A stretch of DNA of 62,508 nt, the filler included, from Dugesia japonica (Eukaryota), in the NCBI GenBank assembly GCA_001938525.1. It is 5 parts of 5 records of this genome, joined end to end, with 100 filler letters (N's around TTAATTAATTAA, not from the genome) between each part and the next. Parts side by side here need not be neighbours in the genome. Positions count along the whole stretch, not along the records: positions 42,956 to 52,934 come from MQRL01392310.1; positions 53,035 to 62,508 come from MQRL01317991.1; 3 more parts are not named here. One strand, written 5' to 3'. The notes under the pieces were generated by a model, which did not search any database, had not been told where the DNA came from, and saw only the letters and a list, made by a program, of their open reading frames with translations. Of the stretch, positions 2,249 through 62,200 are shown piece after piece. A program made the translations under genes and the position numbers. Within the stretch, counting starts at the first letter, position 1; every line of letters begins with the position of its first letter.

Positions 2249-2487
2249 AGTAGTATTAAAATGGGCGTGATGAACCCTATCCCCTTTTTTTCATTTTTTC
2301 GCCGTAACCAAAATGATCACTTTTACGGCTTTTCTATTCAAAAGAGTGAAAAAAAGGTAAAAAGCGTTTTAAATTGGAAAAATTCTAATAAAATTTGTAG
2401 AATTACAATCAATGAGAGATATCATTTAGAAACGGCTCAAAAAGGAAAAAAACGCTCGAGGTTCATTACGCCCATTTTAATACTACT
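2249..2487. mobile_element. ~240 bp MITE-like element with AGTAGT..ACTACT termini
   Basis: Left AGTAGTATTAAAATGGGCGTGATGAACC is the near-perfect reverse complement of right GGTTCATTACGCCCATTTTAATACTACT; no clean TSD. Confidence 0.65.
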
Positions 2488-2567
2488 TCACTTTTTTAAA
2501 AATTTACATAATTTCTAATAAATAAGATAAATAATAATAAAAAGTTATTTAATTAATAAAAAAAGAC

Positions 2568-9426: not shown

Positions 9427-9451
9427 TTTTAAATGTAATATTTTTTTTAAT

Positions 9452-10893: not shown

Positions 10894-10900
10894 TAATTTA

Positions 10901-11338: not shown

Positions 11339-11342
11339 TTTA

Positions 11343-12059: not shown

Positions 12060-12064
12060 TTTAT

Positions 12065-12956
12065 TTAATTTTCTTTATAAGTTGATTATACTTATCTGTT
12101 GAAATAAAATGATTATTCTTAATTCTTACTAAGAATACTTTTAAATTGTTGATCAACATTATTATGTCCAGCTTTTTGTGCCGCAAATAATATATTTAAT
12201 TCAATAAATAGAATTATAGGATTCAACGCTTTGAGTCTAGACATCTTGGATGGTGTATCTTCGCTTTCATCATCACTAATTGAATTTAAATGGCTTATTA
12301 TCGGGCTTCACCCCAAGACATTCGTCTGCCCTTTTCCTTCTTGAATTATTGATCCATCATTAGTTGAAGATAATTTTTAAAACGTTTTATATAATTACTT
12401 GCTAAAGATGATTTACGTAAAGATAATAAATTTAAATATTTTTTAATTTCATCTTTATTATTAGAGTTTTTAGATAAAATTAAATTCTCTAATTCATTTG
12501 TAAATATAATTTCTGTATTATGTGTTTTAGAATATAAATATGACATTCCGTTTCTTTTATAAAGAAATAAAAGAATGATCATTAATAGTTATAATTCTAT
12601 AATTAACATTGTTTATTTTTTAATTGTAAATGTAGGATTAATTGTTTTCGTTATTAAATTAGTAATATCTTGTTTCAAATAAATCGGCTCATAATTATCA
12701 AAATCAATTAATAATGGTTGCTGTTGCTGATTTTCCTTTTTATCTTGAATAGTTGGTTTAGGCTGTTTAGTATTTTCAATTGAAACAAGTTGTGTTGGTA
12801 ATAATCTATTCTTTCTAATGCTTTTAATGTTGGTGTTTGCTGTTGAGTTAAAACATCATTTAAAATTGTTGATTCAGTTTTTTCAGATAATTATTTATTA
12901 TTATTTATCTTGTTCTTTGATTAATTGTTTTAATAAAGTAATTCTATCTTCATACA
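12065..12956 (-). pseudogene. Conserved Polinton-type protein with C-terminal ELNILFAAQKAGHNN motif
   Basis: Hand translation of ~12100-12210 matches the LxLLxAxxxAG(N/H) motif seen in Polinton ORFs; upstream part frameshifted. Confidence 0.5.
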
Positions 12957-13240
12957 TTTTTAAATATCTAGTAAGGTCTCATACATATTCCTAAACCATG
13001 TTTTGATTCTTTTATTTTAACAATACCGCCAAATTTTAATTTTTTACCCGTTTCATTTATTACTGATTTTACTGAATCAGATAAGTTTGATTAATTAATT
13101 AAATTCTTTATAACCCTTTCTTCTTTATAATCCTTTTCCTTGATAAAGATTTAAATAAATTCCATTACCTTTATAACTTTCTACTATCTCTTTTCCTTTA
13201 AATGGTTGAGTAGTTTTATTTCCGACTTATTTTAATTGTC

Positions 13241-13528
13241 TTAATTCCTCTTCGGCATTTGTCTTTCTACACCTAATTTTAAAGCTTCTCTTGCTTTTAC
13301 AACAGCTGTTGCTACTCCTCTTGCTGCCGCTCCTAATCCGCCTACAACAGCTGCGGCTTTTGCAATAAAAGGAATCAAAGCTAATAATGGTAATATTCCT
13401 CCTTCTTTAGTTTCTTCATTTTTAACNGCTTCTTTAATTTTCTTACCAATCCAATATTTTTCATTATTTATTAAAACAGATTTAGATTTATTAGAATCTA
13501 TTAATTCATTTTCAGTAATATTAGTCAT
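13241..13528 (-). CDS. Adenovirus pX/mu-precursor-like small core protein
   Basis: EGGILPLLALIPFIAKAAAVVGGLGAAA resembles the GGILPLLIPLIAAAIGA segment of adenoviral pX (recalled from memory). Confidence 0.65.
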   Translation of the reverse strand: MTNITENELIDSNKSKSVLINNEKYWIGKKIKEXVKNEETKEGGILPLLALIPFIAKAAAVVGGLGAAARGVATAVVKAREALKLGVERQMPKRN

Positions 13529-13547
13529 TATTTTTTCAAATTATAAA

Positions 13548-14366
13548 ATGAGTATGGATTTGACTTCGTCAATAAGACACAAAGTGTCCGACTTACCGAT
13601 ATGGAATAAAAATAAAACATTATTTAATAATAAAATTTTACCAAATAATTTTAGATTATTAATTATTGGTTCTTCTGGTTGTGGAAAGAATGTATTATTA
13701 ATGAANNNNNNNNNNNNNNNNNNNNNNNNNNNNNNNNNNNNNNNNNNNNNNNNNNNNNNNNNNNNNNNNNNNNNNNNNNNNNNNNNNNNNNNNNNNNGTT
13801 TAGAGAATAATTTAACTAAGAAAGCTATTTTAAATATATTTAATAATCAAGATAGAATACCAGATGAAGTAAATACTGTGTATAGTATTGTTGAATGGTA
13901 TAAAGAAAATATTATTAATTCTGATGTTACAAATAAAAATTAATATATAGATGAGGAAAATAAAATTGATGTTACATTTTCTAATAAATCTTTAGATATT
14001 ATTTATTGTGACAATCTTCCTAAAAATAAAAAGAATTTAGTTATATTTGATGATGTGGTAAATATGAAAAATCAGGATATTCAAAAATCATATTTTACTA
14101 GAGAAAGACATAATAATTGTAATGTTCTTTATATATCTCAAACTTATTACGCTTAAGATAAAAACTCAATTAGAAATAATTCGAATTGTTTTATATTTTT
14201 CAAGTTAAATAAAAGAGATAAAGAGATCCTTTATCAAGATTTAATTAGTAATATCAAACAGGATAAATTATCCTTTGATAATTTTATTAAAAATCACTGG
14301 AAAGATAAATATAATTATATCTATTTAGATAGAGAAAAAGAAGAGATTATTGAAAATTTGTTTTAA
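13548..14366 (+). pseudogene. A32/FtsK-like genome packaging ATPase
   Basis: Walker A GSSGCGK, Walker B LVIFDD (~14038), TRERHNNCNVLYISQ, IRNNSN; in-frame stops and an N gap. Confidence 0.92.
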
Positions 14367-15050
14367 AAACTAGTTTTTAGTAATTCATTATCATAAAACC
14401 TTCCTAATATATCTTCATTATTTAAATCAGTTATTCCATATGTAATTGGTTTAGTATGATAAACTTTAGTTATTATAAAAATTTCATTAGTAAATTTTGT
14501 TGTATATATTTTTTAAAATTTATTTTTATATTTGAATATCCTTACTCTATCACCTATTTAAAACTTTTGCCTATTTAAGATATTATCATTCTCATGATTA
14601 TGTAAATTAATTATATCTTTAATTTTATCAGGATTTTCAGATGCTTTTTTTGGCGATAACTTAATATTACTATGAATTGAATTATTATATTCATTGACTA
14701 TTTTATCTAATAACGCTTTATTCCATTCCTGTTTCCCAATTGATTTAAAATATATAAACATTTTATTTTACAATGTTTTTATTAATCTTTCAGCAATAAC
14801 TGATTTACCTTCATTCTCTGTGTGATATAATTTTATATTATTTTCATTTAGAAATTTATCAAAGTATTTTGATTTTATTGCTCATTCTTTATCAAACTAA
14901 ATATAATCTGTTATTCTATTATTTTCTTCAAATATATTTTCATAAGCTTCTCTTAAAGATTCTTGAGTTTTACCTATCATTGGAATGCAAAAAGCATATC
15001 TTGTATATAAATCAATACATACTAAAATATATCTATACTTTTCCTGCGTA
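14363..15050 (-). pseudogene. Polinton retroviral-like integrase, 5'-truncated
   Basis: YILVCIDLYTRYAF, IAERLIKTL, YNNSIHSNIKLSP, GDRVRI, EIFII.KV..PITY..DL..EDILGRFYDNEL. Confidence 0.9.
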
Positions 15051-15686
15051 GCTTTGCTACTAGTCATCTAATATGACGAGTCAGTGGATTTTTTAACCAT
15101 CAACTTACCAACAAGTCTCCATCAATGTCGTCGCCTCATACAAAAACTGTTTATTGAATTGTCAAGCGTCAAAATGAAAGGGTTCTTCTGCGTCATATTA
15201 CACAGCAAAACCGCTTAATAAAAACATTAGACCTGATCATCAAAAAACAGGGTGAGCTGTCGGAGCACACCAAGCAGATTCTCACCCATAAGATCGAATT
15301 CCTACAACAACATAGAGCTGATCTGGAAAACCGCCTTGAACAAGAAACTTGAACCCGTTGGAACAGCGAAGATGACGAGGCCGCCTTCAATTTTATGAAT
15401 GGTGAGCCTACTAACCCTGGAGCTCTGAATTATATATGAATAATTAAAAAAATAAATTTTAGTACCAATATATTTCTTTAATTGTTTTATAAAGTAAATA
15501 ATGCGAAAATATGAACCCAAAATAAAGGTATACGAGTGAGCACTTCAAGTATACGTTGGAAGTTAACCACTCTATACTGATAACCTAATTAGGGACATTA
15601 GGTAAATTCTTTAACGGGTCCCCTGAGGGCTGCCTTTTTTCCCCCAGCCATATGTTTCTACTGTAAACTCAGGTGGAACCCCAACA
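15051..15686 (+). mobile_element. Unclassified multi-ORF TG..CA element, copy A (last ORF plus terminus only)
   Basis: Ends CTCAGGTGGAACCCCAACA as at 54583 and 56370 (rc); ORF 15085-15439 (INLPTSLHQCRRLIQKL..AAFNF..PGAL) homologous to 56602-56981. Confidence 0.8.
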
Positions 15687-16711: not shown

Positions 16712-16921
16712 ATGAAATTCTGTTTGAATTGTAATGAAATCATTGAAAATCCATATGAATATCGATTGTTTAGGTGCCATCATCTGTTTTCTAAATCTTG
16801 TATAATTGAAAGGTCTGTCGTACAGACTGTTTGCCACTTCAAATGTCCAATTGATGGATTATCTAATCTGACAATTTTGGCTAATTATAGTGATGTTGGG
16901 TTGGAACACATTCAAGAATAG
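16712..16921 (+). pseudogene. RING-finger-like ORF, probably truncated
   Basis: CLNC..CHHLFSKSC..CPID follows C3HC4 spacing with one ligand changed to Ser; early stop. Confidence 0.55.
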
Positions 16922-17084: not shown

Positions 17085-17222
17085 AAACTCGGGCGTAGAG
17101 GACCCAAATTTTATCATACAGAAATAGAATTTATAATAGTGGAAAAAGAATGAGGAATTAAATAATAAAAATAATCTACAATAATATAATAATATATTAG
17201 AAGGGCCTCTACGACCCGTTTT
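17085..17222. repeat. Short inverted repeat pair, MITE-like
   Basis: AAACTCGGGCGTAGAGGACCC versus GGGCCTCTACGACCCGTTTT. Confidence 0.5.
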
Positions 17223-17259: not shown

Positions 17260-19870
17260 TTAGAGGAGTAATTAATTTGGTCCAGTCATCTTTTTGCCTT
17301 GTCTGAATCGGATGATAGCAGTCATACATAAACAAAGAAGCTGATTATTCACCAGAAGTTCAGACAAGGACTTTGCCTAGAAACTAACAGATGCATCACA
17401 TAGGTCACATGAAGTGATGACCGAGATTTACCAAAATTCAAAAGTCCGAGTTCGTGTGCAGAAACACTGAGGTATGCACACCGAATTCAGGACTGTGGCA
17501 GCTAATCAGAAAGCCAGATAATGAAATACGCATTACTATTCGCCGGCTAATCGAGAACCAAATAATTTCTCTATCCTAGGGGAAATAAAACGGGCTGACG
17601 CGAAGCAATCAGTCAGAGTAAAAAAATAAATTTTTGTGTTAAATTGGAGAGCAGAGTATTAAAAAAAAATTTTGTGTTAAATTTTATAGCGGAGTATTAA
17701 AGATTCTTTGTTTAAATTTATAGCTAGTAACACAACGCGTATTTCTCAATATTGGATCTTGGACTCGGGATAAACGAAAAGTAATGTTTGTTCTTTATAC
17801 ATAGTTTTACCCCATTTTGGAATTTATGTAAACTTGTGCCATTGCCCAAATTTGAGTTCTCCGGGATGGATCGAGCTCCGGATTTATTCCGATCAGTAAT
17901 GAGTGTCTAAATATTATGAGGTTCTACTTATCCACGAATAACCTGAATGTAAAGAGATGAGAGTCATTGTAGAGCAAATCCAGAAAATGGATCTGATAGG
18001 ATTATCCGTAAATTATGAGTTTGCAGGAATTGGGAGATCGATCAATCTCGGGAGTAATTGTTTGGTTATTTGAGTTTAAAATGCTATGAGTTTGAATTCA
18101 TGGGAAATTAGCGGGTCCATTCGTGTTTTGGGTCACTAAGTATTTTTTTTATTTTTATTTTTATTGTTCTTGTCAAGCTATTTAATGTTAATAAAATCAT
18201 CATAATAAAGTAATTTTCATTGATTTACCATATTATTCATTCTGCATTTGATAATCAAGTACAATTTTTCTAAATATTCATTATTGCATTATTAATACAA
18301 TATCTCACACTTAAAGGTTTGACGATACCAGTCACGATAATAATAATATAATATCTCACCTATCTCTGTATTCATTATAGTTATTCCGTTTAGGTAATAA
18401 AATGAATTCCGGTAAAATATTATTTAAAAGAATAATAAATCAACCCTAAATTTCAGTAATCGTCCGACTAAATTATTTTCCATTAATTGTTGATAATGAT
18501 TACAAAAAATCCATTCTAGCATAAGACAATGACTGGAACGAGAAAAGATGCGTAATTAAGGCTCATCTTTCCTCGTTCTCGTCATATAACGTTGGAAGCC
18601 AAATTTAAGGCTGTAGGCCGAAGAAAATCATTCCACAATTAACCCACAATTAATGCTCGTACTATTTCATGATTTTATTTAATTGTTTATGGTCTATTAG
18701 ATGGTTAAAGGTAGACGCAATCTCCAAAGGCCTCCTTATATTTGACCCTACATTGACGATGTAGGCCGATATTATATTGAGTGGAACGAAGTGCGGATCA
18801 TGATAAGAGTAGAGGCAGAGAAACATTATCACGAGATCAAGAGCCTCGAGGCGGATAACGAGACGGTCCTAAAAAATAATAGAATAAATGAGTTAGTGTG
18901 TCAGTTGAAACGAGCTCGAGAGTCGCTGCAGAATCAGATCAAACAACTCCAGGGAGAGCTATCTGGCACTTCTCCAAAAATCGTTTGTGTTTTTTCACTC
19001 CGTAGTGCTACAGAGGTAGACGATGAGATCGAAGAACGGGAAATAATCCGTAATCTGATGGATTAGAGTGATACGAATGAACAATCAGTTTAATCTTAAT
19101 AAAAGTTTCTCAGTGTAATTTTGATTTTAAAGCAAAGTTCGCATTAATTGCTTTGTTGTTAATATGATTTAGAGAGTGTGATATGTAGGTCACAAGTAAA
19201 GTAAAAAATGCTGCAGAGGTGGTAGTGTATTGATATAACGAGCTTAGTTTTATTTTTTGTTTATTCGGTGTTAGTAGTTTGAGGAGCAAGCGATTGATAG
19301 AGACATTTTGCTCGAGTGAAATGGCAGATAGCGGTGAGGTTGTGACGGAAAACGTCCCAATTATGAAATTTGACATGGTATATTTTTATGCACTGGTTTT
19401 AATAGTATAATATATATAAATTCACAAGTAAGAGCGATATGAGGTAGTCTACAAATTTAGATCATTTTCAATTATAAAATAATTAAAATTCTTCTTATAA
19501 TTTAGTGGATAAAACTGCCGAGAATAAAATAAATATGAGGGATGTGTTATCAACGCAGAAGAAGTGGAAGGAGGAGCGTAGGACACTCAGAAATGAGGTG
19601 CTGCAGCTGAAGAGCCAGGCCACCAAACACAACCTCAAACATCAACAGCTTAAAGAGAAGGAGTTTGCTCTACAACAAGCAAACCGTTTGATGGCTGATA
19701 TAATCAAAGTTTATGCCGATCGAGAGGCGGTGACATTTGCTAATTTACTATCGCTGTGGTTGTTGTATCAAGAACCACCTGAGGAGTCCAGAGTGAACCA
19801 TACCACGGTCTATTTGGATTTCGGAAAATTAGAGTAATAAAATTTTTCAATGTCGCATTAGTTTTTTTTT
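17260..19870 (+). mobile_element. Divergent relative (copy B) of the multi-ORF element; ends not identified
   Basis: GC-richer ORF islands (18700-19066, 19505-19837) separated by AT spacers with AATAAA; 19505 ORF shares MRD..W.E..IIxxYxDRE with the 53793 and 57458 ORFs. Confidence 0.45.
17615..17725 (+). repeat. Three imperfect ~40 bp tandem units
   Basis: Repeated GAGTA(T)TAAA..TTTGTGTTAAATT..AGC. Confidence 0.65.
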
Positions 19871-19890: not shown

Positions 19891-19990
19891 NNNNNNNNNN
19901 NNNNNNNNNNNNNNNNNNNNNNNNNNNNNNNNNNTTAATTAATTAANNNNNNNNNNNNNNNNNNNNNNNNNNNNNNNNNNNNNNNNNNNN
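19891..19990. other. Artificial contig linker (also 31036-31135, 42856-42955, 52935-53034)
   Basis: Identical 100-nt N-TTAATTAATTAA-N block; the 12-mer places stops in all six frames. Confidence 0.95.
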
Positions 19991-31035: not shown

Positions 31036-33189
31036 NNNNNNNNNNNNNNNNNNNNNNNNNNNNNNNNNNNNNNNNNNNNTTAATTAATTAANNNNNNNNN
31101 NNNNNNNNNNNNNNNNNNNNNNNNNNNNNNNNNNNTTTTACCCGTTTAATAGAATCATAACTATCATTATTTACATCGGACAAGATTAAAAGAAAATTGT
31201 TAGTATTCTCAGTTGACTTTTCATATAGGAATTTTTCAAAAATATTTTTAAGAGTCAAAAAGTTCGAATTAATGGAAATGTATATTTGTGTTTATTAAAT
31301 TTTTTGAAAGATTCGATACATCAAAATGTTAAAATTATAAATTCGAGTTACCGAAAAAATTTCGAATTAGATAGTGTTGGCAATCCAACAACAAGCAGCA
31401 ACATCAGCTAATTGTTCCGAGAAATATAGGAAGTCATGATAATGATATTTATTTCTATTGATAATTTATACTTAAAAATCATAACAATCGGCTAATCCAA
31501 GAATGGTAATAAAACTTAGCACGCCAAAAAATTGTTAACACTATTAAAAATAAATAATAAATAAATAAAATAATTGAGAGAATATTCTTTTTACTTTTTT
31601 TTTTAATTATTTACTAATTAGTTTGTGTTTTAATTTATTTAAAAACAATTAATAATCACTAGATTAAAATGATACCAATCAAATATGCAGAGAGTTTTGT
31701 AAATACTTGGGCCNNNNNNNNNNNNNNNNNNNNNNNNNNNNNNNNNNNNNNNNNNNNNNNNNNCAACAACAAGCAGCAACATCAGCTAATTGTTCCGAGA
31801 AATATAGGAAGTCATGATAATGATATTTATTTCTATTTATAATTTATACTTAAAAATCATAACAATCGGCTAATCCAAGAATGGTAATAAAACTTAGCAC
31901 GCCAAAAAATTAATAAATAAAATAATTGAGAGAATATTCTTTTTACTTTTTTTTTTTAATTATTTACTAATTAGTTTGTGTTTTAATTTATATAAAAACA
32001 ATTAATAATCACTAGATTAAAATGATACCAATCAAATATGCAGAGAGTTTTGTAAATACTTGGGCCGTTGATTACGACTCAGTTTAACATGGAGAGCCGT
32101 TGTATTCGGTTATCTGAAATTATTGCATTTCGAGCGTCATCTATTAAGGAACATTTTGAAATTTGCTATAACGAAAATGCCGATTAATATGCTCGAAGAA
32201 AGAACAAAAGAAATTGTATTTGCACGGAATCCACGAATTACCTGAAATATGGAAGAAATGTGCTGCTAACGACGGAAGCTTCTTTGAATTAAGTACTTTT
32301 GATGTTTCTCTAGAATTTATCTTATTTTCATTGATATCAAATCCGTATGATTAACTGATAAACCTAGTATTTATTACACAATTATATATGCACTTTGTAT
32401 AAAAAATGAAGTTTTGGCACTGGGTCAAAATTGCATTAATATTTTTAAAAAATTTTGGAACGTTGATAAAATCATATTTGCCATCCCCAGGGTAATCTAT
32501 TCGTTTATTGTTTCTATTTATTAATAATAACTTCTCTTATTGAATTGTACTTTTCTGTAATTTATATTTCTATAAAATTTATATTCTATAAAAATGTTAA
32601 TAACAATTTTATTACTCTGAAAATTTTATTATAATTTAATTAATTATAATTTATTTATATTTTAATTAATTTTGTAATAAATTTAATTTAATTTTTATGC
32701 GCAGCATTATTGAAAATTTTATATTTACATAGTAAACGATAATAGAATTATTCACGTATGACAAATGTTNNGAGAAAAATATAATAAAATTTTTTATGTT
32801 TTAAAATTATATTTTGTATTATGCATCAGCAAATATGTATAAATACTGCTATGTATCATACATTTGTTTTATTGCGTTGCGGTATTATAGACAATTTATC
32901 ATGGTTTGCGGACCCTTTTAATATTTGGAATTTAAATTTACNNNNNNNNNNNNNNNNNNNNNNNNNNNNNNNNNNNNNNNNNNNNNNNNNNNNNNNNNNN
33001 NNNNNNNNNNNNNNNNNNNNNNNNNNNNNNNNNNNNNNNNNNNNNNNNNNNNNNNNNNNNNNNNNNNNNNNNNNNNNNNNNNNNNNNNNNNNNNNNNNNN
33101 NNNNNNNNNNNNNNNNNNNNNNNNNNNNNNNNNNNNNNNNNNNNNNNNNNNNNNNNNNNNNNNNNNNNNNNNAATGAATGACTGCTTAA

Positions 33190-41978: not shown

Positions 41979-43169
41979 GTTATCCAATATCAATAATTAA
42001 AACCTAAATTTTGATCTAAGCTTTTATATTAAATGAATGTTTCGTAATGCTTTTATTTTAAGTTACGAAATTTTTAAAAATTAATAATTTCTTTTAATTN
42101 AATAAATTGATTTTCAGATGATAATTGTATACGTTAAAAAATCTTTATGATATTATTAAAGTGTTTGGATATATGGTAAGTTATTACGAATTATGATCAA
42201 TATTATGAACTTTGATAATAAGTAAGGATTTATTTTATTTAAATTAAATGTTTATAATTTTATTTAAATTATATATATAGTTGATTATATATGTGGTAGT
42301 TGCAATAGCGTTACATAATAATTTAGTTTTGCCAACAGAAACAAAAATAAATATTGATCTATCAGATACATGAGTTGTGGTAATACTGAGTCATTACTAC
42401 CTATCAAAGTGGACAAATGTTCTGTAATTGATTTTGAGAAATGCAACTTAATTGAAAACATTCAGTAACAATATAAGATTACACATCATTAATTTTTATT
42501 ATTCATTAAAGGTGAAATATAATAAAATAAATTTAACAGAATACTACTCACTAGTTTAGTTTAAAAGCTTTAATTCTGTAACAGCCTATCTAAATAACGG
42601 CTGTGGTGTGGATCGGGATGAGCAACGGATTTTCTTCTTCTTATTTTTCTTTGAAAGTGTTTGGAGATATGGTAACTTATTACGAATTATGATTAGTATT
42701 ATGAACTTTGATAATAAGTAAGGATTTATTTTATTTAAATTAAATGTTAATAATTTTATTTAAATGTTAATGTTTTTCTTTAATGATTTAACTTAATGAA
42801 CTTTAGTAATGCTTTTCTTTAATGAAAATAAGTAATGATTTTCTGTAATGATTTTNNNNNNNNNNNNNNNNNNNNNNNNNNNNNNNNNNNNNNNNNNNNT
42901 TAATTAATTAANNNNNNNNNNNNNNNNNNNNNNNNNNNNNNNNNNNNNNNNNNNNTCTAGACTGGAGATACTTTGATAATTATATCTTCCAATAATCTAA
43001 CATATTCTAACTGAAAACCGTAGCAAATAGTTCTGAGAAAAAAATTTAATTAACAATAAATTCACATAAAAATTTAAGTCCAGTACTTAATTAATATTTT
43101 AATGAATAAAAAACTGGACAATATTCTATTTAACTAGGCCAGAATAATTTCCTTTTGCATCTGAATCGC

Positions 43170-45212: not shown

Positions 45213-45827
45213 CTGATTAACAGTATTGGCTGCCAAACTTGTAAAAAAGGTTCCAGTACTAACACAAAATAACAAATTTAGGTTTAATGCAGAAGGAGCC
45301 ATCACAAAGCCACAAATACAACTAGTAACAACAAGTGTAGTTAACCGTAATTTACCTAGTTTCATATACATATCATATCTATGTTTGAGCGATAAATAAC
45401 TTAAGTTTCGAGGAAACAAATTAAGTGATAACTGTTGCGAAGGATCTATTTATTCCATTAAATACGTACAAAAGTATTAAATAATGATACCTTTTATATC
45501 GTTAATTTTAGAATCATTCAATGTTTGTGGTTTTAAATATTGAACTAAAACTTCTGAATCATTATTGTAATGCCTTTTTGGATATTCGCCTCTGCAGAAC
45601 TTCTCAATAGAATTTAAATCAATAGTCATTGGTTTCATATGAATTGGCCGAACAAGACAAATTTCTTCGCCTGATTCAAGACGAACATAATTTAAACAAC
45701 CAGGCTTTAACGTTATTCTAGAACTATTTGAATCAATGTTCAGTTTTGTTTTCTGACTCGATACAAATAATTTTGCTAAACTGGTATTATAATGTTTTAA
45801 AAATCTACGACTCTGTAACGTAATCAT
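45213..45827 (-). CDS. COX10: Protoheme IX farnesyltransferase, exons 1-2 only (intron 45446-45490)
   Basis: LGKLRLTTLVV..GFVMAP..GT...SLAANTVNQ|GT matches the COX10 first TM region; the 45-nt GT-AG intron joins it in frame to a basic presequence-like N-terminus; later exons not found in the window. Confidence 0.85.
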
Positions 45828-46347
45828 CAAGAAATACTGTTACTAAGTTATTTAGTCTAATGTTTGTGGATTTAGATAAATTTTTACAGGTTTTAATAAT
45901 TCCAGGAATAAGAATTGATTTTTTACCAATTTCACTATCACAAAGATAAATGAATATAGTAATAACTGTTAAAACAACTTCGACGTTATCTGAGCACAAT
46001 CCTTTAATTATCAACCAAAAATTTTCGTGATGGCAAATATAAGAATGATATGTCACGTTTGGAGAAATATTACAAATTCCAATAAGTGAATTCAAATGAA
46101 TTCTATGGGAAAGGCTTTCGTTAGTGAACTGTTGATTGTAATATAAATTAATATTTTCAAAAAATATATCTAAGGTATTTAATTGTAATAAATGTTTATG
46201 ATTTCTACTATCGTAGGCAAAATTGGCAAGATTTGCAATTATTTGATCTTTTACTTCAATTGAGTCAATATTTTTCAATTCGTTAACAATTTCTTCTAAA
46301 TATTTTAGTCTTTCTATGCTTCCTGGTGCAGCTCGACCTTTATTCAT
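45805..46347 (-). CDS. ARMC7: Armadillo repeat-containing protein 7
   Basis: RLKYLEEIVNE..KDQIIANLANFAYD..GICNI..LCS.N.EVVLTVIT signature. Confidence 0.92.
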   Translation of the reverse strand: MNKGRAAPGSIERLKYLEEIVNELKNIDSIEVKDQIIANLANFAYDSRNHKHLLQLNTLDIFFENINLYYNQQFTNESLSHRIHLNSLIGICNISPNVTYHSYICHHENFWLIIKGLCSDNVEVVLTVITIFIYLCDSEIGKKSILIPGIIKTCKNLSKSTNIRLNNLVTVFLDDYVTES

Positions 46348-46777
46348 AACACATCAGAAGTTATCTACAACAAGAAATTTTTATATAAGTTGTTAATTAA
46401 TTATAGTATGCCTGTATGGAAAATCAAATTTATAATTTTAATATTGTAATTATTTGAATATTAAAACAATACACAACTTTACATAATCATAAAACAAAAT
46501 GTTTATTTTTATTATATCTACAATTGTAAATACCAACGTACAATAGTCAGAAAGACATTATAAATCACCTAAAAGTCAAGGCAATTAGTAAAGTTTAAGT
46601 AATGCATTTCGTATGTTATAATTAATATTAGAAACGAGCGAAATTTTTAAATATTTCAATCTCAGTTTGTATTATACTTCTACTTACTTTTACGTGGTCT
46701 AATGTTTAAATAATTGTAAAGATATAAACGAATGTTAATACAAAAGTCATTTTATTTCATAATAAATGTTTAATATA

Positions 46778-49033: not shown

Positions 49034-49685
49034 ATTAGATGGATAGTAACGCACTAGAACACCCCTCCACCTCATTTTTAAAGTCTACTGTTCCCAGTTT
49101 TAAGCGTTTTGATTGGTCGAAAATTTTAAGGTCCAGGTCAAATGGTCTCAATTTTTGAAGAGTCATCGAAGTTTCCTGATGAGGTCATAATGTGATTTTT
49201 TTTCTTTTAGGGTAAAGTGTTAAAGGATTTTTATCGGTTGAATTTTTTTTAAGGTCAACTATTCTAGATTTTTGGTGAGTCATCTGTGTGAAATTAAATT
49301 TTTGTTTAAATTGAAAATTTTTTATGATGTTTATTAACATGATGTTTATTTAACAATTAACATTAGGTGCTCCCGGGCACTATTAACATAAAAAAACAGC
49401 GCCCCGGGCAATATTTATATTAATATCATTAAAAATTATTTTCATGCATTGTTTCATTAACAGTTTTGTTTGAATTTCATAACATTACACTAGCTTCTCC
49501 GACATGTACAGTGCAATGGAGCAAATCCATCAAGGTCTGTTAGCATCCAATCGAGTTCATTCATAAAAGTTTAGGCCAGTTGACCTTGACCTTAAAAATT
49601 TCGACCAATCAAAACACCTAAAATCGAGAACAGTTTACCTTAAAAAGGGGGTTAGGGTGTTCCAGTGCGCTACTATTCATCTACT
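49034..49685. mobile_element. 652-bp non-autonomous Polinton-type element with 6-bp TSD
   Basis: ~110 bp imperfect TIRs ending CATCTACT; GAAGAC on both sides (49028-49033, 49686-49691). Confidence 0.85.
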
Positions 49686-50080: not shown

Positions 50081-50247
50081 ATCTAGAATATTATTTCACA
50101 TATGATTAAGTTAATAATGAAATATTTTTAGTAAAATAAATTGTTGAATTTATAAATAAATAACTATTGATAAAATTATCAAATATTTAATTTAAATAAT
50201 TTAAATTTGAGAAGATTGATAAAATCTATATTAACTAAACAATACAC

Positions 50248-51084
50248 ATGGCCTGTAGAAGAGAACGAAATATTCCTGGTTCATGCCTAAATTTGCCACA
50301 AGGTCAGGATTATGATTCTCCAGTTAAAAGATGTCGTTTACAATATATGCAGTCTGAACATATCAAACATAAAGATATCGCAGAACTTGAAGGTGAAGAG
50401 GGCCCGATGCCGGATACTCTTAGGATAGGAATAAGAACCCGTTATTTTGCAATCGCTCCGAACGATTCATCACACAATGAATGGATAGCGTACACAATTT
50501 ATCATTTATATGATCGTTTAATTAATTATTGGAACATTTTAATGTATTTCTGTTTGGATTCAGAATCAGCTAAACGTTTACATAAAGCACGATCAGTAAA
50601 ATATTACGGAGTTCCACCAGCTAATCCTTTGCCCGCAGAACTAAGAGATCAAGTTAATGAACCAGACAATCATTGTTTTTTTGATAGAAGTTGGTTTCCG
50701 ACTAATCATGACCCAGAAGGGTGTAGCGTAATTGAAACATTTCCTCAATATATAGAAAGATATATTGAGCATTTGGATTTGATTAGAAATGATACAAATA
50801 TTATGCCCGGTGTCGAGGAAGAATTTCAATCAAATTTTATGGAGGCAATGTCACCTACATACAAAAATATTATTCCATTTTTTGCACATGTATATCGAAA
50901 ACATTATAGAGGTTTATGTGGAATGGGAATTTTATATCATTTTAATTCATTTTTTATGAATATTATACACCAAGGATTGGTGTATAAAATGATTACTGAA
51001 AATGATATTGATGACCAATACGTATTCAATCATTATAAAAGGATTTACAAAGAAGAAGAAATGAGAGTCAAAGGTGGTAATTAA
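50248..51084 (+). CDS. Intact intronless 278-aa ORF of unknown function
   Basis: Longest ORF in the track, GC above flanks, AATAAA downstream; no recognised motif except SPVKRCRL. Confidence 0.7.
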   Translation: MACRRERNIPGSCLNLPQGQDYDSPVKRCRLQYMQSEHIKHKDIAELEGEEGPMPDTLRIGIRTRYFAIAPNDSSHNEWIAYTIYHLYDRLINYWNILMYFCLDSESAKRLHKARSVKYYGVPPANPLPAELRDQVNEPDNHCFFDRSWFPTNHDPEGCSVIETFPQYIERYIEHLDLIRNDTNIMPGVEEEFQSNFMEAMSPTYKNIIPFFAHVYRKHYRGLCGMGILYHFNSFFMNIIHQGLVYKMITENDIDDQYVFNHYKRIYKEEEMRVKGGN

Positions 51085-52644: not shown

Positions 52645-54583
52645 TGTTGGGATTTTACCCTAGGTGGGTTGAATTTTTGTTTGGTTTAAAACATTATATA
52701 AAATTAAGTCTAGGGTAATTGACCTGGTAAAACCCCGCGATGAATTTAAATCTAGTGTCTCCAAAAAATCCAGATCTTCGGGATGAAGCCGTTGACTCGT
52801 AGCTCGAGTGCATACTCTCACCCCTTTGGTTCGGGTTCGTTTCGCATGATACTCGCCTGCTTGAAATCCTACTTATAAATCATTAATTTATTTGATTTCA
52901 ATTTATAACGGATTTTATGGAATTTTTATTATCANNNNNNNNNNNNNNNNNNNNNNNNNNNNNNNNNNNNNNNNNNNNTTAATTAATTAANNNNNNNNNN
53001 NNNNNNNNNNNNNNNNNNNNNNNNNNNNNNNNNNATCTTGTTCTCTCCCCGGATGAAATGGATTTAAGGTGTTTTAGGGAACTATATCCCCTCCCTTGGG
53101 AGGTTGACTTGGACATTGAACCTGGCTATGAATCGTAAAATAAAATTCGGTGTTGATTACACTCATTGTTACTATTTAACTAATGTTGTTTTATATTTAA
53201 TGATGTTACGAATATCGTATTATGTTGACGGTAATTTTAATTTTTTCAGTCAGAAATGGAATCAATATAGGAGAGAATAATCTATCGCAGAACTCGTCGC
53301 ATAATTTTCTGGCGACATAGAAATCCGCATAACCGCGACGCAGGTGTTTTGTCTGACCGATCGGACTTACCACCGGTAGATGTCATCGTCGCCAGAATCC
53401 AGGATTTTGTCGAGCGACAAAATTATTGGAGCTGGATGGGGCTGGACCAAACCCTTGTCACGACATTCCATTATCAACCTACAGCCCCTCCTCAGCGGTG
53501 CAGGCTTTTATTAACCATTGATTATGAGATGTAGCGAGGATTCAGAGAATACGGCACTCGTGGAAGATTCGACTCTTACTCATTAGTGTGTTACTATTAA
53601 TTTTGTTGTATGTTAAAATAAAATCACTAAGTATTCCGGTCTTATCACTAAATCCTTTTATTCCGAAATTTTCTTATATTAAAACTAGGATTAGTGGTAG
53701 TTAATTGTCCACCGGGTAACAATAAATGTAAGTATTCGGTGTTACTCAACAAGGCTTTGTATTGTGTTTAACCCAAATTCGTTTTCTTCTAGTGCACACG
53801 TCATAGAATCGCGCTACAGAACCAACCAAGAAAATGCGAGAGTCGGTGATGAGGCCGAAATCACGTTGGACCTATATAAACTAGAAAAACGGCGATGGGA
53901 GGTCAGTACGGCATACGCTGAAGCCAAAGTAGGTCGTTATAAAAAGAAATGTTTGGCTTTTAAAGCCGAGGCTGAAGCGTCCCACCGGCAAGAGAGAATC
54001 CTGAAGGCTCAATTAGATACGTTCACTGAGATTATCCGGTCCTACCAAGACCGAGAGAATTAACTGGTTCAGGATATTCACAAATTGAAAACTGCAATGC
54101 CCCTCGAACCATTGATGGTCGACAATGGTACCCAGGCTCCGAGAACTTAATATCTGCCATTGCATAAATAAATGTTTTGATATTAAAATTTAATTTTTTA
54201 TTCTATTTTTTGCTTAGTTAATTGGCATATCTGTCGCCGAACGAATAAACTAATGTTATATCTTGTTTAGTGCCGCGAATCACATTCCCAAAAAGCTTAA
54301 GAAGATGTCACCCAATTATGCGACATCTCATATAATTTTCATGTAAAATAAAGTTTTTATTTTTTGACTCATTCTAACCTTTAATAAATTCGTGGTAATA
54401 GGGAAAATAGTGAACCTAAATCCAAAGGCTGATGAGCGCGCACCTCCCATTAAGTGAGAGCTCAACTACCATAAGCTGAATACCTAACCTAGGTGCATTA
54501 GGTTAAATTCTTGGAAGGGTCCCCTGAGGACTGTTTTTCCCCAGCCACATTTCTCCTCATCCTACTCAGGTGGAACCCCAACA
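52645..54583 (+). mobile_element. Unclassified multi-ORF TG..CA element, copy C (spans a linker gap)
   Basis: TGTTGGGATTTTACC start and GGTGGAACCCCAACA end; ORFa ..53138, ORFb 53256-~53590, ORFc 53793-54150, ORFd stub from 54271, collinear with copy D. Confidence 0.8.
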
Positions 54584-54599
54584 TCTGTATAAGTTTTTG

Positions 54600-55400
54600 A
54601 TAATTATCTATTTTAATATTGATTTATCGATTTAAATATAATGAAACCATCACACAATAAAGCATTCAACGATACCTTACTCAGGTCTAAGTCATTTATG
54701 ACAAATAATATTTTAATGAAGTTTCAAGTGTATTAGATTTGATTTCGGATAGAACCACAGTAGGTTACATGCAAAATTTAAAGTAGTTAGAGCTTTATTA
54801 GTGTTGAGAATATTAGCAGCAATACAAATAACATATGGATTTCAATTGGCATATGATATCTTCTTTTTAATCGGATATTTATGATTGAAGTAGTCGCTAT
54901 TTTGAAGATCGGTATATTATGATCGCCATTATTAACGTAAACCGTGAAAATATGTACGCTGTTGCTACTATAACAACAAAATAATATGAACATAAACAAA
55001 TTATCATTTATTACATCTTCGTTGCTTAAACTTTTATTAATTTTTTCTACATTTCATTCAATCAATTTGTCTTCTGACTTATTCAAAAGATATCGTCTTT
55101 TATGAATTTGTTTTATCACTTCAAATCGAACTGCATATCTTTCTTTGTCTTTTATTCTACATTCTACCTTAATACATATTTCGTCTCCAACTTGAAATGT
55201 ATCTTTATTGGTATTAAGTAAATAGATTCTTCTTTCTTTTATTCATTACTGAAACACCTTTCTCTGTGTATGTATACTTCTGCTGAACTTAATCACGATG
55301 TCTTCTGACATGTTTCATTCAATAAATATTTAATTTCTGCTACTAACTCTGCCAAATGTTTTATTTTTTTTATGTTTTAATATTGTTTTAAAATTGAAGT
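54600..55400 (-). mobile_element. Gypsy integrase 3' end plus probable LTR
   Basis: FQVGDEICIK..RRYLL..NVEKI followed by TGTAATAAA at ~55015. Confidence 0.55.
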
Positions 55401-55544
55401 TCTACTATTCCATTTGTATTATAATGATATTGACTAGAAAAGCAAATCATTATATTCATTGAATCTGTCATCTTTTTAAAATCTTTTGATTCGATAACTT
55501 TCATGAACTTCATTGAAAATTAAATAATTCTTAAATCAAGCAAA

Positions 55545-56330
55545 ACTAATCATCTATAATTTAGATACATAGACGGTATTTTCCTTGTAACTAATTCTCC
55601 TCTAGAGAACATTTTAGAATTAGCTAACAGTATAAATGATAATATTAAATTTACTTTAGAGAATTCAATTGACTTCCAGATTCCTTTTCTAGACACTTTA
55701 ATACAATGGAAACCCGGTGAAATATTAACTACCAATTATATTTTAAACCATTTTGCAGTGGAATAATAAAACTACCATCATCCAGAAAATTTGTATAATT
55801 AAAGGTGAAAGAATTCGAGCTGAGAGACTAACTTTAAATAAAGAAATAATAAGTCAATAAAAAATAAATTCTTAAATAACGGTTACCTAAATAAAATTAT
55901 ATCAAAATATTAAACGTTGAATACAAAACATAATAAATCAAACCAAAATCAAACACAGTTATTAAATTACATTTTAATAATGAGAAATGTAGCCAAATCA
56001 TGCAAAATATAATAAACAATTCTACACTCAAATATAATCCAAGAATAATATTCAAAACGCAAGAATCTTTGGGCATTCAATTACAGAAACCAAAACAGAA
56101 TTTATGTAGTTCCAAATGCATTTGTGATGGTAGAAATATATGCAATGAAAGTGTATAAAAAATATATATAAAATGTATAAAAATGTTAAAAATAGCTTGC
56201 ACGATTTGTCAAGAGACATATATAGGATAAACATGCAGAAAAATCCAAACAAGAACTAAGGAACATCTGAAACAAATACATTTTAGAAGAAACAATGTAT
56301 AAGTAGTTTTTTTTATTCTGATTAAATGGT
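55545..56330 (+). mobile_element. Penelope-like retroelement RT C-terminus and GIY-YIG endonuclease, degenerate
   Basis: FRYIDGIF, NIKFTLE..IPFLD, then CTICQETYIG.T.R..QTRTKEH. Confidence 0.85.
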
Positions 56331-56369
56331 GCTGACATGTTTTTGTATAAATTATTGCTTCATTATATA

Positions 56370-58490
56370 TGTTGGGGTTCCACCTGAGTAGGATGAAGAA
56401 AAATGTGGCTGGGGTAAACAGCCCTCAGGGGACTCTTTCAAGAATTTAACCTAACGCCCTGGTGTANNNNNTTGACCTCTCGCTTAATGTGAAGTGCGCG
56501 CCCATAAACCTTTGGCTTTGTGTTCACTATTTTCCCTATTAATACTAATTAATTAAAGGCGAGACAAAGTTAAACTATAGACACTTTATTTTATAAAATA
56601 ATTACATCAGATCCAACGCCCCCGGATCTAACCATTAGGCTGGATCGGCTACCAAGAAATTGAAAGCGGCGACATAGTCGTTGTCGTCCCATTAAACTCA
56701 GGTAGGGTTTCCTAACTGGCGGTAGAGGTCAGATATACTGTTTGAGGAAGTCTATTTTCCTCTGCAACAAAAATGTATTCTTCTCCTCTAGTGCTTTTGC
56801 CCGCACCGCCAGATCGTTGTTTTTTCACAACCTGATAAGGTTTTTTGATCAGACGATCTCGTTGGTTCAAATGTTTGAGAAGTGCTCTGTCGGTTTTCCG
56901 CTTTAGATGGCATTCTATTAGTAGGCGGCGCAAAATACGATAGCATCTGCAGACACTACTAGGAAAGGTGATGCGAGGCACTAAAATAAGTGAAATATTA
57001 AAGATATCATAACAATGAACTAGATTAGTCTCAATCTTGGTTAGCAGTTATTTTATTTAATTTATTTAAATAAATGAGCAAATACGAAAAGAAAAATTTT
57101 ATNNNNNNNNNNNNNNNNNNNNNNNNNTTTTCTCTATCATCAAGGGTTTGATAGGTATCCTGTCCCTGAGATTTAAGACATCCCCAACCAGATTATTCTC
57201 TCGGTCGTGGCTGGACAGGATAATTTCCGCAAAGGACTCAACCTTCTTTTTCCTCGCTTGCATGTGGGAGGCTTCGGCTTCCTTTTTAAAGGCGATACAC
57301 TTTTTCTTGTATCGGAGTACTTTACTATTCGCGGTGGCCATCTCCGCCTCCCAATGACGTTTCGCAAGGCGGTAAAGATCGCAAGTCATTTCTTGGTCCT
57401 CACTGTTGTCTCTCATTTTTTTGGTGGGAGCTGTAGGACGATTCAGAGAGGAATGCACTACAAAATAGTAACTATTACTAAAATATTATTATCGCAATTA
57501 TGGAAGCACACAACGCTTAAAAATAAACTTTCATATTAATATTGAACGAAATCTTCTTTTAATGTAATAACAAAGAAATAAGTTAGATTATCGTTAAGAA
57601 AAGACACTTATTTATTTATAACTTTAAGCTTCAAACACAGAAATCATTGTATATTCGTAATTGTATCGATATTAGGAGCGGTGTTCTCGGCATCTATATT
57701 ACCAGAGGGTTCTCTCACGCCCAAGAGTAAGTTGGAGATAAAGGCTTGTACTACTGGAGGCGGGGCCGGAGGTTGATAGTTAAACGACGTAACGTGGTTA
57801 TGCGCTGGTCCGTTCTATTGGTGGAAGCGTATCCTCTCGCCGAAGCTCTGGATGCGAGCCACTGTAGCCTCGATGGGTGGTAAGTTCGACCGATTTACCA
57901 AAATACCTGCATCTCGGTGATGCGGGTTATGGTGGCGTCTAAAAATAAAACGGTGAGTTTTTCGATCTATTACTTGTTCCCAAACGGATTACATTTCTAT
58001 TTAAAAAGTAATACTAATTATTACCATAACACTAATAAAATTTATATAGGTTTATGTGACAAAATTATAATTAGAAAAGTCTAAGGTTAATTATACTAAG
58101 ACAAGACCATATGAATTGGTTTTATATTAATTTTTATTGTTAAACATAATAGAACTGAAGATGGTTATTCCTCGACTATGTTAACTTTTTTATCTAAGGG
58201 GAACATCTCTGTGAAACATTGGAGATCGGTTTCATCAGGATGTTCTATTTTGCCACAAGTCAGAACGTGGGCTATCAGTTGCCTCGAACGAGCGGCCTGA
58301 CGTTGCTTTTTATCAGTCTCAAAGCATGAGGCAGCTCTGCTGGCATAGCTAAAGGAGAAACAATCAAACATATATATAATGGTTCTGTTCACGTTTAATA
58401 CTCCTGAGAAATTTACGAGAAATGCTTGTTAACTGATGACACTCTTTACTGGGGTACGGTAGCGGGGATGGACCGAGGTATGTGGCCAGA
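56370..58490 (-). mobile_element. Unclassified multi-ORF TG..CA element, copy D
   Basis: Terminus TGTTGGGGTTCCACCTGAG; ORFa ~58490-58165, ORFb 57994-~57640, ORFc 57458-~57100, ORFd 56981-56602. Confidence 0.85.
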
Positions 58491-58499
58491 TTTATCTTG

Positions 58500-59450
58500 C
58501 CATTGAAACCAAGAGAATGAAACGATGTATTGGAATACTAAGCCGAACCTTGCAAAAGGAACAACTAAAAGTGGATACGAACATTCCTCCTCGTTTAGAC
58601 ATTATTTGAATGCTAGAGCCAATGAATTCCACCACGCGGATGCAAATCACAACGTTCATAACAGGTTTCTCGTGAGGTCGAGGGGGTTAATAATTACAAT
58701 CAGAGGAGCAATGGTATTCGTTTCAATGTTGCTAGTAATAATTAGACTGGTCATAATAATGATTAATGATATTTAACATTATGTTGTTAGCGCGAATCAT
58801 ATTGATAGTGCTACCAATGCTAAACACCATACTACCCTAAAAAACAATAATTCTAATGTCGGTGACTATGATGGCCATGGGGTTAATCATAAGTAGCATT
58901 ATATATGATCTTTGTCTCAGTGCAGAGATGAGACGAAAAGTAATCTTATGGATAATGATCACCTAAATAATAGCAGCAACGGTAATTATGAAAATAAATA
59001 TAATAAATCCAGTTAATGGCAATACAATTGGTCAAATAATAATAATGCTGAATAATAATTAATATTGGTATGGATTATAATAATATTACGGAAAAATTGA
59101 TGCTACTTTAGTATTAGTGAGGAAGATGTTAATTTAAGCGATAATAATAAATTGAATAATGGTAATAATAAAGATAAAGGAAACACATATTTCTAAATTT
59201 CGACCTCACCAATTATTGTTAGATCATCATAGTGGCCATTACAGTAAGTAATATGCAAATTGTCAGTATCAGATCGAGAAATAAATTATGCTTATTTTTT
59301 TAGCGGCGATGTTAAATATATGACTAATCTTGGAGAGAGTTCGATTATGGTTAATTTTAAAGAGATGTGTGGGTCATTCCTAATAATCCAACACAATCTC
59401 CTATTTTTGTTTCGTTAGTACGATCTTGGTACACGCTAATGATGTGAGTA
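58500..59450 (+). mobile_element. Possible Gypsy gag(-pro) remnant with Asn-rich stretch
   Basis: IGILSRTLQKEQLKVD..NARANE resembles the gag GI..LQ..LL..ARA.E motif; very decayed. Confidence 0.4.
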
Positions 59451-59985: not shown

Positions 59986-62200
59986 ATAGTTCGACTATAA
60001 GTATAAAATTTACTTTGTAAATAATTTCAGTTTTTCTGCAACGGGTACTTTGCGAAGTGGGCTTGATTTTGATTGAGAATTCCTCCGGTTGGCGTTCCGA
60101 TATATTTGTTTTTCTAACTAGAATACTTCCTTTGAATAGTTATGTGATGCCCGATTATTAAGCTTCTCGTCAATTTTCTTTACAAATCAGTTTGGGCAAA
60201 AATAAAACTTGGCTAGCTTCACAAAACTGTTAAAATTTTACTATTTTTTGCGTGTTTCCTTCTAATTTTCTGGGGGTTTAAATATCGTTTTTCAAGACAC
60301 CCTGACTTGCTTGGCATTGGCCAGTTATTTTTAATTCAAACCTCTGGTTTCTCATTGGCGTTGGTGCCAATTTTCAGAGTTTTTTAAAGGTTTTTTAGCA
60401 TTCTATTGGTGCCTNNNNNNNNNNNNNNNNNNNNNNNNNNNNNNNNNNNNNNNTAATGATTCCTTTGTTCTAATTTTATTTTTAGACATCCCATTAGTCC
60501 AGTTTTTGGGACCTTATAGCAGCCTTCTGGATGATGGCAGGGTTTTTTGACAGAAAAGAATCGATGACCAACCCTAATTCCTTCTGGAATTTTCTTACGC
60601 CGAGCTCCTGTGATTTTCCGGAGCAAAGTTATTCGCATAAAACGAATTTCAGCCTCATTTTAATTTATTTTACACTTAAGTTAATAAATATTTTCTTTAT
60701 AATTAATTCTTATGGTTAATAATTTTCTTGCTTCTTTACTAATAATTGATTAATTTTCTTTAATTGATTGCATTAATGGATGTTGGCTTGATGACCCAAG
60801 TTCATTGTTATCGGGTTTTACTTAGGTTGTTCATTAATTTACACCCTGTTCGATGGTTGTACTCGTTCTTCTTCTCGTTTTAACCATTTTTGGTGCCTTA
60901 TGATTTCTTCTTCCTTTCCGTATTTTATAATCAATGACCGCCTTGGTCTTGCTTCCTCCTCTATTTTGTGTTTAATATATAACTTGGTGAGTTATCGACT
61001 TTATTTAATCAAATAGAAAAACTTGGCGAGTTATCAATCATACATCCTTACAAAACGTTTCACCGTCAGGCTTCTTTGAACCGAGGATTGTACCATAAGA
61101 TCTACTGTGTCATACCGCAACCAACGATACTATTACGGTTCCCATAACATGTATATGCTCGTTTTAAATTGAATTTAAAAAGTTATTGTTCTCATTTAAG
61201 CATCGTTTAGGTGAAAACGAAGCATTTTATGTCCAAGCTTCTTTATGTACTTTTAAATTTCCATAAGAATATTACCAAGATCAAAAACCATAATAACTTT
61301 TTTACCGTCCCACTTGAGTGAATTGACGATAACACTATGTAATTTACTGCGTCAATAGGCATCCAACGATATCATGACCGTTTTTGTATGACTTATAAGT
61401 ATGTTCGTAAATATAAGAATATCAAGAAGATAAACCATGGCTCCATTGAATCCGCTTACCACTTTTATCATCATCTCTTTGAATGTCCTTGGTGCCGCTG
61501 CGATGCCAAATGGCATTCTATTAAAACATCTAACTCCATCTAACTTTGCCAACATTCCATCGACATAAGGCGTAGGAAAGGCTTTTCTTTTCGTTACTGC
61601 GTTCAATTGTCTGAAATCTAAACAAATTTTTATGTCTTTGTTTTCCTTTTTCAATACACACATCAGTGGGGTATTCCATGGAGAGTTCATTTCCAGATAA
61701 TATTATTCTCGAATAGTTTTTGGATAGCTTCTTCTATTTTAGATTCTAAATTCATTGGTTGATTATACGGTTTTACATTGATTAGTTCACCACTTGTTAT
61801 GATTTTGTGTCTTGTTAGATGATTCGTCATACATCCCAATTATCTGCCATAAAAGCATCTTCTTTACTTCCAATTATTTTCAATAACTTTTGATCCTCTT
61901 TAATCTTAAAATATTTAAAGCTCTTGTCAATCGCTCTCTTTTTGAAATTTGTCTCCCGAATTTCGCATCAATATTACAAATGTAATTTTCGACTTTTTCA
62001 TCCGTTTTACTGTTACCCTTTTCCATAAGCTTATATCCAAAATTCTTCTGCATATCTATTCCTCCTATCAGATCTGATGTTACTCTTTCAGCAACTAAGA
62101 AAGTAATCATTTGCAAACTTCATCAATTATCACTCCAATTTTAACTTTCACAACAATTTTAAGTGTACTATTATTTGCACAACGCAATCTTTCATTACTC
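59986..62200 (-). mobile_element. Decayed Ty3/Gypsy pol (protease end, RT, integrase remnants)
   Basis: DLIGGID; SPWNTPLMCVLKK..CLDFRQLN..RMPFGIAAAP.TF..VYLLDILIF. Confidence 0.9.

Follow-up and report, generated by a model that had tools for sequence, protein, structure and literature searches.

Decayed repeats in Dugesia japonica carry small ORFs that may be alternative last exons with a splice-made start codon

A stretch of 62,508 nt from Dugesia japonica (assembly GCA_001938525.1), referred to below as the window, carries diverged repeats with a series of small open reading frames (ORFa to ORFd), two of which, ORFc and ORFd, begin with TG directly behind an acceptor-like AG. In the favoured reading, which as a whole is given slightly less than an even chance, the repeats are decayed copies of a mobile element and the small ORFs are alternative last exons that would be cis-spliced from one shared donor, completing the ATG of ORFc and ORFd. 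The sequences, the codon pattern, the hexamers, the multi-copy state and the protein family are observed; the other parts of this reading differ in strength: joining of the cassettes by splicing is, judged from their sequence, quite probable, a single shared donor is rather likely, and the use of A/TG (the slash marks the proposed junction) as initiator is evenly balanced. Each cassette would consist of an acceptor-like AG, about 100 codons, a stop and AATAAA, and the choice of an acceptor with its poly(A) site would yield one small protein per mRNA. The donor would end in A and lie in or behind the tail of an upstream repeat. ORFb, and probably also ORFa and the cassette-like ORF D3, carries its own ATG just past the AG; the AAA ATG G of ORFb also fits a leader ending in A.

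The window is AT-rich (GC 19-37% per 2 kb), and its parts are joined by 100-base gaps with a central TTAATTAATTAA linker (19891-19990, 31036-31135, 42856-42955 and 52935-53034), across which the order is uncertain. Self-comparison reveals copies A (plus strand) and B (minus strand, about 58350-56370) as a diverged pair lying tail to tail and sharing both a tail of 250 nt and the order of their cassettes (a, b, c, d; Table 1). The cassettes are GC-richer, and identity between A and B amounts to 61-65% in ORFb, ORFc and ORFd, 41-53% in the spacers and 86% over the last 180 nt; over 54401-54584, the tails agree at 140 of 163 positions. Decay is evident in A-ORFc, which in the A/TG frame has a stop at codon 5, a frameshift near 53845 and another stop at 54063. 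Copy C retains an ORFd and a tail, copy D a distant ORFc-family cassette, and copy E a tail. Homology of the cassettes 1-3 of copy D to ORFa, ORFb or ORFd was rejected, as the scores were reached by 36-98 of 100 shuffles.

The six AG/TG strings from which a preliminary description of this DNA had argued are all present, as is the AG/AA ATG of ORFb. Its statement that coding conservation begins directly behind the AG holds for ORFb, ORFc and ORFd, where A and B share a codon pattern and the spacers resemble shuffled sequence. When A and B are compared ungapped from the AG, identity rises from 24/60 upstream to 32/45 downstream at ORFc, from 18/60 to 35/54 at ORFd and from 19/60 to 99/150 at ORFb, and the upstream likeness was equalled or exceeded by 62, 283 and 179 of 300 shuffles, respectively. 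In the phase-1 frame, differences at codon positions 1/2/3 number 3/2/7 in ORFc (14 codons), 4/2/13 in ORFd (17 codons) and 15/8/27 in ORFb (49 codons); synonymous codons number 5, 8 and 16, respectively, versus 0-4 in the other frames. Only the frame completed by one upstream base shows this pattern. The sixth string, at 15085, does not qualify as an acceptor, having 4 pyrimidines in 12 positions and a second AG 2 nt upstream. It lies antisense to a remnant of an rve integrase, presumably (counting from the profile position) in the codon before the first catalytic Asp of the integrase.

In ORFc, the first in-frame ATG is codon 15, and the 13 codons that separate it from the AG already include 5 synonymous changes, so that translation should start upstream of that ATG. 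B-ORFd reaches its first stop, at codon 90, without any in-frame ATG. Taken together, this implies that ORFc and ORFd need a start from elsewhere. In-frame stops occur within 50 codons upstream of every acceptor. According to one improbable alternative, there is no shared leader and each cassette has its own promoter, with either a tiny 5' exon in the spacer or an unspliced start at the genomic GTG. Donor-like sites are indeed present in two spacers upstream of ORFc (T/GTAAGT at 53728, 65 nt before the AG, and A/GTAAGA at 19428), but B lacks a donor at the matching place and the spacers are unconserved. The context of the GTG is also poor, since its base -3 is T in 5/5 strong sites, which is unfavourable for GUG initiation. 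The c-d spacer, which runs for about 75-100 nt past AATAAA, contains no donor scoring at least 3 in either A or B, and ORFd therefore needs a distant one. The tandem succession of acceptor, ORF, stop and AATAAA, with spacers both too short and too variable for separate promoters (c-d), is thus best read as a set of alternative last exons with a distant donor.

The preliminary description had also noted that stops are generally followed closely by AATAAA or a near variant. AATAAA itself is seen at all 10 readable cassette ends, where the motif lies -2 to +27 nt from the stop; the antisense hexamer occurs at 1/10, and the background frequency of AATAAA is 0.16-0.23 in AT-rich 41-nt windows. The ten ends represent five ORF families, and the B-ORFc end, which lies in a run of N, was left out. 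Six stops (A-ORFb, B-ORFb, A-ORFc, B-ORFd, C-ORFd and D3) were set at the end of the GC-richer block, passing earlier stops, and the count is partly post hoc, owing to these chosen stops in decayed copies. The proposal of alternative terminal exons entered in phase 1 from upstream is thus well supported at the sequence level by the codon pattern and AATAAA, and an A/TG start is favoured; trans-splicing of the cassettes, put forward alongside, finds no support here.

Further evidence comes from the protein family of ORFc. A profile built from three ORFc copies retrieved 5 proteins, 4 of them with a YADRE motif, and a second round retrieved 15 of 1175 candidates. The family comprises 16 distinct unnamed proteins encoded on contigs of 0.5-2.2 kb from ENA, JGI or Logan; protein P0002, a generic coiled-coil match, was dropped. 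A profile of the database proteins matches the window at 19550-19789 (E 4e-21), at A-ORFc (0.007) and at B-ORFc (0.28), and the comparison of this profile with that of the ORFc copies gives E 4.8e-11. On these matches, A-ORFc and B-ORFc are distant members of the family. Single-sequence searches with B-ORFc and with the ORFb pair gave no match, and no family in Pfam, PDB or Atlas fits ORFc, the only likenesses there being to coiled coils. Scans for ORFc-family loci yielded 0 matches in viral contigs and 1 chance match in prokaryote genomes (L008). A V-D-L-D-like tail ends 10 of the 16 relatives and, by its resemblance, is a candidate SUMO-interacting motif. A similar E-V-D-L-D stretch stands near the end of A-ORFa (53110-53135, plus strand).

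The starts of these relatives bear on the initiator. In 13 of the 16, a called Met stands at the colinear place, followed by Ser (9), Ala (2), Thr or Leu; two reach further upstream and have Val at the start position (Ala-Val-Ser in P0008, Ile-Val-Asn in P0001), and one is shorter. The Val of P0008 and P0001 lies 67 and 69 residues before the Tyr of YADRE, as do the Met of P0007 and the GTG at 19506. For the Ala or Ile before Val there are codons that end in CA or TA, and both Val residues are compatible, at the level of codons, with YAG/TG and a genomic GTG. Prokaryotic gene callers write Met for GTG, and all called starts of the relatives may be AG/TG in the DNA. The five strong AG/TG sites of the window belong to two ORF families and are not five independent events. 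That two unrelated families have TG after the AG although the residues next to it are not conserved, and that the second residue of the relatives is one typical of starts, favours A/TG as the initiator.

A rather unlikely alternative keeps the alternative last exons and supplies a leader in the form of a short coding exon that brings an ATG of its own, so that the xTG codon would be internal and the start unsplit. The start would be the ATG in the conserved tail, 22 nt before a donor-like site; in B and most other copies it would encode Met-Gly, a possible myristoylation signal. This ATG has the same location in A as in B and, in A, is in phase 1 to A/GT; in addition, the base at 54435 is G in 796 of 813 depth units of contig set X1, giving ATG-G. 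ORFa (AG/CT ATG), ORFb, ORFc and ORFd are all consistent with phase 1, a constraint that applies only if the leader is coding, and iERV env exons are likewise spliced from short peptide-coding exons (PMC12992720). However, a coding leader leaves unexplained both the TG after AG in two unrelated families and the Met/Val-Ser starts of the relatives. Moreover, the ATG is missing from that place in C and E, the donor position of B has GC, and D3 is in phase 0.

As to where an A-ending leader of the favoured type would come from, the preliminary description pointed to 52645-52935 as the 5' region of the element. This proved misplaced: the segment is the minus-strand 3' tail of copy E (nhmmer match 52839-52634, E 6.5e-4; score versus C reached by 1/300 shuffles), and 52645 was accordingly rejected as a TG start or leader of copy A. 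A left end was found for none of the copies, since A and E run into the gap, C is truncated and none lies upstream of B. The element is therefore at least 2 kb long, and the earlier figure of about 2 kb is not a defined size. Within the tail, the candidate donor of A (Table 1) has a counterpart in C, where A/GTGAG occurs at 15536, and none in E. A/GTRAG is thus found in 2/4 tails, at different places, with 0.1 such sites expected per 250 nt.

A very improbable alternative is an operon-like unit in which spliced-leader trans-splicing supplies the missing base. The close same-strand ORFs and the succession of poly(A) signal and acceptor would suit it, as would the acceptor-like AG about 10-17 nt before possible ATGs in the host ARMC7 gene. 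Most spliced leaders outside the flatworms end in G, which speaks against this alternative. Flatworm leaders end in AUG (PMC12582326), which would put ORFc and ORFd out of frame.

Of 24 listed runs, none of which is on record as an RNA holder, four were mapped on 53035-59300 at 80% likeness, two of raw RNA (X9, X13) and two contig sets (X1, X4), with about 6 and 25 in 100 of X9 and X13 read. These two gave 96 and 179 reads, nearly all on a Penelope-like remnant and hardly any on the cassettes. Among the positions listed, no loose end such as a spliced-leader tag would leave was seen at any acceptor, where X9 and X13 have no coverage; poly-T loose ends at 54175 and 54211 were discarded as artefacts of mapping in T-rich sequence. 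The coverage by X1 and X4 is even, reaching 30 and 29 of 30 bins, and DNA-like. These two sets contain diverged contigs from the same organism, up to 28 at one ORFc site, 18 at one tail site, 15 at ORFb and 6 at ORFd, and one 985-nt contig aligns only from 53244, in the pyrimidine tract of ORFb, onward.

Several observations weigh against cis-splicing of an A-ending leader to A/TG cassettes of a mobile element. No junction read was obtained, and at five acceptors (A-ORFb, A-ORFc, B-ORFb, B-ORFd and B-ORFc) X9 and X13 have a depth of 0, in copies that are decayed and at low coverage. TG is shown by two independent ORF families only, and it is also found at background sites: the acceptor filter retained 194 sites in 122,822 nt, 16 of them followed by TG (4/5 strong sites pass, and 57457 fails by one pyrimidine). 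The 13 called Met may be true genomic ATGs, which for those lineages is the outcome that the preliminary description had named as contradicting a split start. A scan of the four tails revealed no GT donor ending in A that is conserved across all copies, and donors ending in A are less usual than those ending in G. Finally, the window yielded no left end, no target-site duplication, no primer-binding site, no polypurine tract and no linked gag/pol.

The class of the element has to be judged from its conserved tail. CCCAACA closes all four tails, the flanks beyond it being unrelated, and a CA end (typically ...CAACA) is expected of a long terminal repeat (LTR) retrotransposon of the Metaviridae, Belpaoviridae or Copia type. 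Such an element would also have a matching TG start and a target-site duplication of 4-6 bp, for which a left end would be needed. The tail most resembles the R/U5 end of an LTR, and the element may be LTR-retrotransposon-like, a classification held at just under even confidence; if it applies, a leader in the tail is what an LTR element would use. A primer-binding site or polypurine tract was seen beside none of the four tails by inspection, which is expected for the right ends of solo or 3' LTRs and hence not decisive. A reverse transcriptase (RT) remnant at 61352-61702 (minus strand) shares the strand of B and is situated 3 kb upstream, beyond a run of N, with no link to B shown. Regular linkage to a Penelope-like RT was not observed, as B alone adjoins a Penelope-like remnant and C and E do not, and no telomeric repeat was found. 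Copies A and E face outward across the gap, with a pair score reached by 48/300 shuffles, and are too unlike for one inverted-repeat pair.

Improbable, too, is an origin from a host gene family of the mod(mdg4)/lola kind, whose alternative 3' exons would now be dispersed and decayed, or as cargo of a DNA transposon. It would account for the lack of a linked transposition enzyme, and the inverted subterminal motif of the tail could be a transposase site. On the other hand, CAACA is the common end point of four tails whose flanks are unrelated, there are many diverged copies, and the relatives are all single unnamed proteins on short contigs (0.5-2.2 kb), none annotated as a host gene. No transposase is linked to cassettes or tails. 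Ginger-type DNA transposons have TGT termini, near-identical terminal inverted repeats, a target-site duplication and a transposase.

The last 18 nt of the tail are able to base-pair with an arm located 53-76 nt upstream; in E, both arms differ in step. The tail also contains a stem (54480-54560, 15585-15650 and 52720-52790) whose loop could pair with downstream CCCTG/CCAG in the manner of a pseudoknot, perhaps a pistol-like one; by eye, it changes in step between C and E, and it has no Rfam match. A search for hammerhead or other Rfam RNAs in the tail gave no match at E up to 1, with folding z of 0.3 to -1.0, and CTGATGA is present in 1/4 tails (A only). Scans for the tail motif gave 1 viral and 6 metagenome matches, all by chance, and a second motif gave 0.

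Table 1. Copies of the repeated element and related features of the window (AATAAA offsets in nt from the stop)
Feature	Position	Strand	Remarks
Copy A, cassettes a-d and conserved 3' tail	53035..54583	+	left end falls in gap 52935-53034
ORFa of A, C-terminal remnant	53035..53138	+	stop, then directly AATAAA (53139-53144)
ORFb of A	53254..53600	+	starts AG/AA ATG; internal stops; AATAAA 16 nt past 53600
ORFc of A	53793..54150	+	starts AG/TG; AATAAA +16
ORFd remnant of A	54271..54335	+	starts AG/TG; about 300 nt internal deletion versus B; AATAAA +11
Conserved 3' tail of A	54336..54583	+	ends ...CCCCAACA; terminal inverted pairing
Candidate leader end in tail	54432..54459	+	ATG 54432, phase 1 with donor-like A/GTGAG 54453/54454; putative, chosen post hoc
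Debris between tails of A and B	54584..56369		integrase-C-terminus-like piece and Penelope-like remnant
Conserved 3' tail of B	56370..56601	-	
ORFd of B	56602..56980	-	starts AG/TG; frameshifted; AATAAA +11
ORFc of B	57128..57457	-	starts AG/TG; 110 codons open; end inside N run 57103-57127
ORFb of B	57644..57996	-	starts AG/AA ATG; broken by stops; AATAAA +27
ORFa of B	58165..58348	-	strong acceptor-like TTTCTCCTTTAG/CT ATG precedes; candidate start frame; AATAAA +26
Copy E, 3' tail of more distant copy	52645..52934	-	ends ...ATCCCAACA at 52645
Copy C, ORFd and tail	15085..15686	+	ORFd stop 15439, AATAAA +11; left side joined to Polinton-type integrase remnant
Copy D, distant ORFc-family cassette	19506..19837	+	110 codons open from AG/TG; AATAAA overlaps stop
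D3, cassette-like ORF in D	18701..19093	+	starts AG/ATG (own start, phase 0); internal stops

The debris between the tails of A and B includes a piece at 55045-55300 (minus strand) that is presumably an integrase C-terminus and one at about 55500-56300 (plus strand) that we take to be a Penelope-like RT/GIY-YIG remnant; both labels come from motifs and have no Pfam match. The latter has very many relatives in the organism, and depth over the debris is very high. In X1, 54800-55528 is represented by one identical 729-nt contig at depth 64.7, with near-identical neighbouring contigs at 9-17, which suggests that the junction of the integrase-like and Penelope-like pieces may be repeated. Upstream of the cassettes of copy D lies a short RING-finger ORF (16712-16918, plus strand; zf-RING_10, E 3.5e-4), inside which TGTTGGG occurs at 16894.

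Elsewhere, the window contains a decayed Polinton/adintovirus-type element (2234-15085) with a type B polymerase (4148-6741), an A32-like ATPase (about 13560-14370), ORFs at 10087-12074 that are probably capsid- and protease-like, and an rve integrase (15085-14380, minus strand) that is cut off at copy C. Small inverted-repeat elements resembling miniature inverted-repeat transposable elements occur at 49069-49652 (88-nt arms, 82% complementary) and 17090-17220, besides retrotransposon and mariner debris. An intronless ARMC7 homologue (45477-46353, minus strand; PDB 7dvq_K, E 1.4e-21) has an acceptor-like TTGTAG just before its start, and its end overlaps the start of a second ORF of 115 codons without a Pfam match. 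An intronless, divergent ORF of the Mob1/phocein family (50239-51084, plus strand; Pfam E 6.9e-13) has a long unrelated N-terminal half.

Small ORFs without a genomic ATG escape annotation, leaving such elements and their proteins invisible in repeat libraries and gene sets. If the favoured reading is right, a selfish element would express its whole accessory set by selecting among acceptors and poly(A) sites, its starts being gated by splicing, and translation of the accessory proteins would be tied to splicing that host silencing pathways can control. It is conceivable, though doubtful, that the element belongs to a widespread, unclassified family in animals and is an adenovirus-late-like unit in miniature, in which an A-ending leader is spliced to at least four poly(A)-ended cassettes, ORFc and ORFd acquire a start codon through splicing alone, and the products include a new coiled-coil family whose C-terminal V-V-D-L-D tail, similar to a SUMO-interacting motif, could act against host silencing.

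The adenovirus major late unit combines one leader, many acceptors and several poly(A) sites, and its start codons are unsplit. In contrast to it, no adenovirus-like gene is found among the cassettes, and their leader is a proposed one. The small ORFs of MDG1-group LTR elements, sORF1 and sORF2, are likewise accessory and have an alternative poly(A) site separating the two, but the transcripts are unspliced and the small ORFs have their own starts (bioRxiv 10.1101/2025.03.14.642691). ORF3 of bdelloid LTR elements and Terminons offer extra, often coiled-coil ORFs, of which ORF3 is typically expressed from spliced messages, as well as 5'-truncated copies with a structured 3' end (PMC5408684 and PMC6431247); in contrast, the cassettes of the window have no hammerhead motif, telomeric repeat or linked RT. 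The closest parallel to the start is the env subgenomic RNA of Drosophila gypsy and springer-subclade errantiviruses, in which the start is made at an AT/G splice junction, so that a 3' ORF without its own start obtains its ATG through the junction with an upstream leader (PMC2585583 and PMC12992720). There, the split is AT/G and a single env ORF ends at the LTR poly(A) site, according to the same sources, whereas in the window an A/TG split is proposed and at least four small ORFs, each with AATAAA, show no env similarity. Neither an A/TG transposon start nor a series of accessory cassettes that are both spliced and poly(A)-ended was found in the literature searched, mostly the main text of non-subscription papers. 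Within that literature, a splice-made start is known from gypsy env, and the array of such poly(A)-ended cassettes would be the new part.

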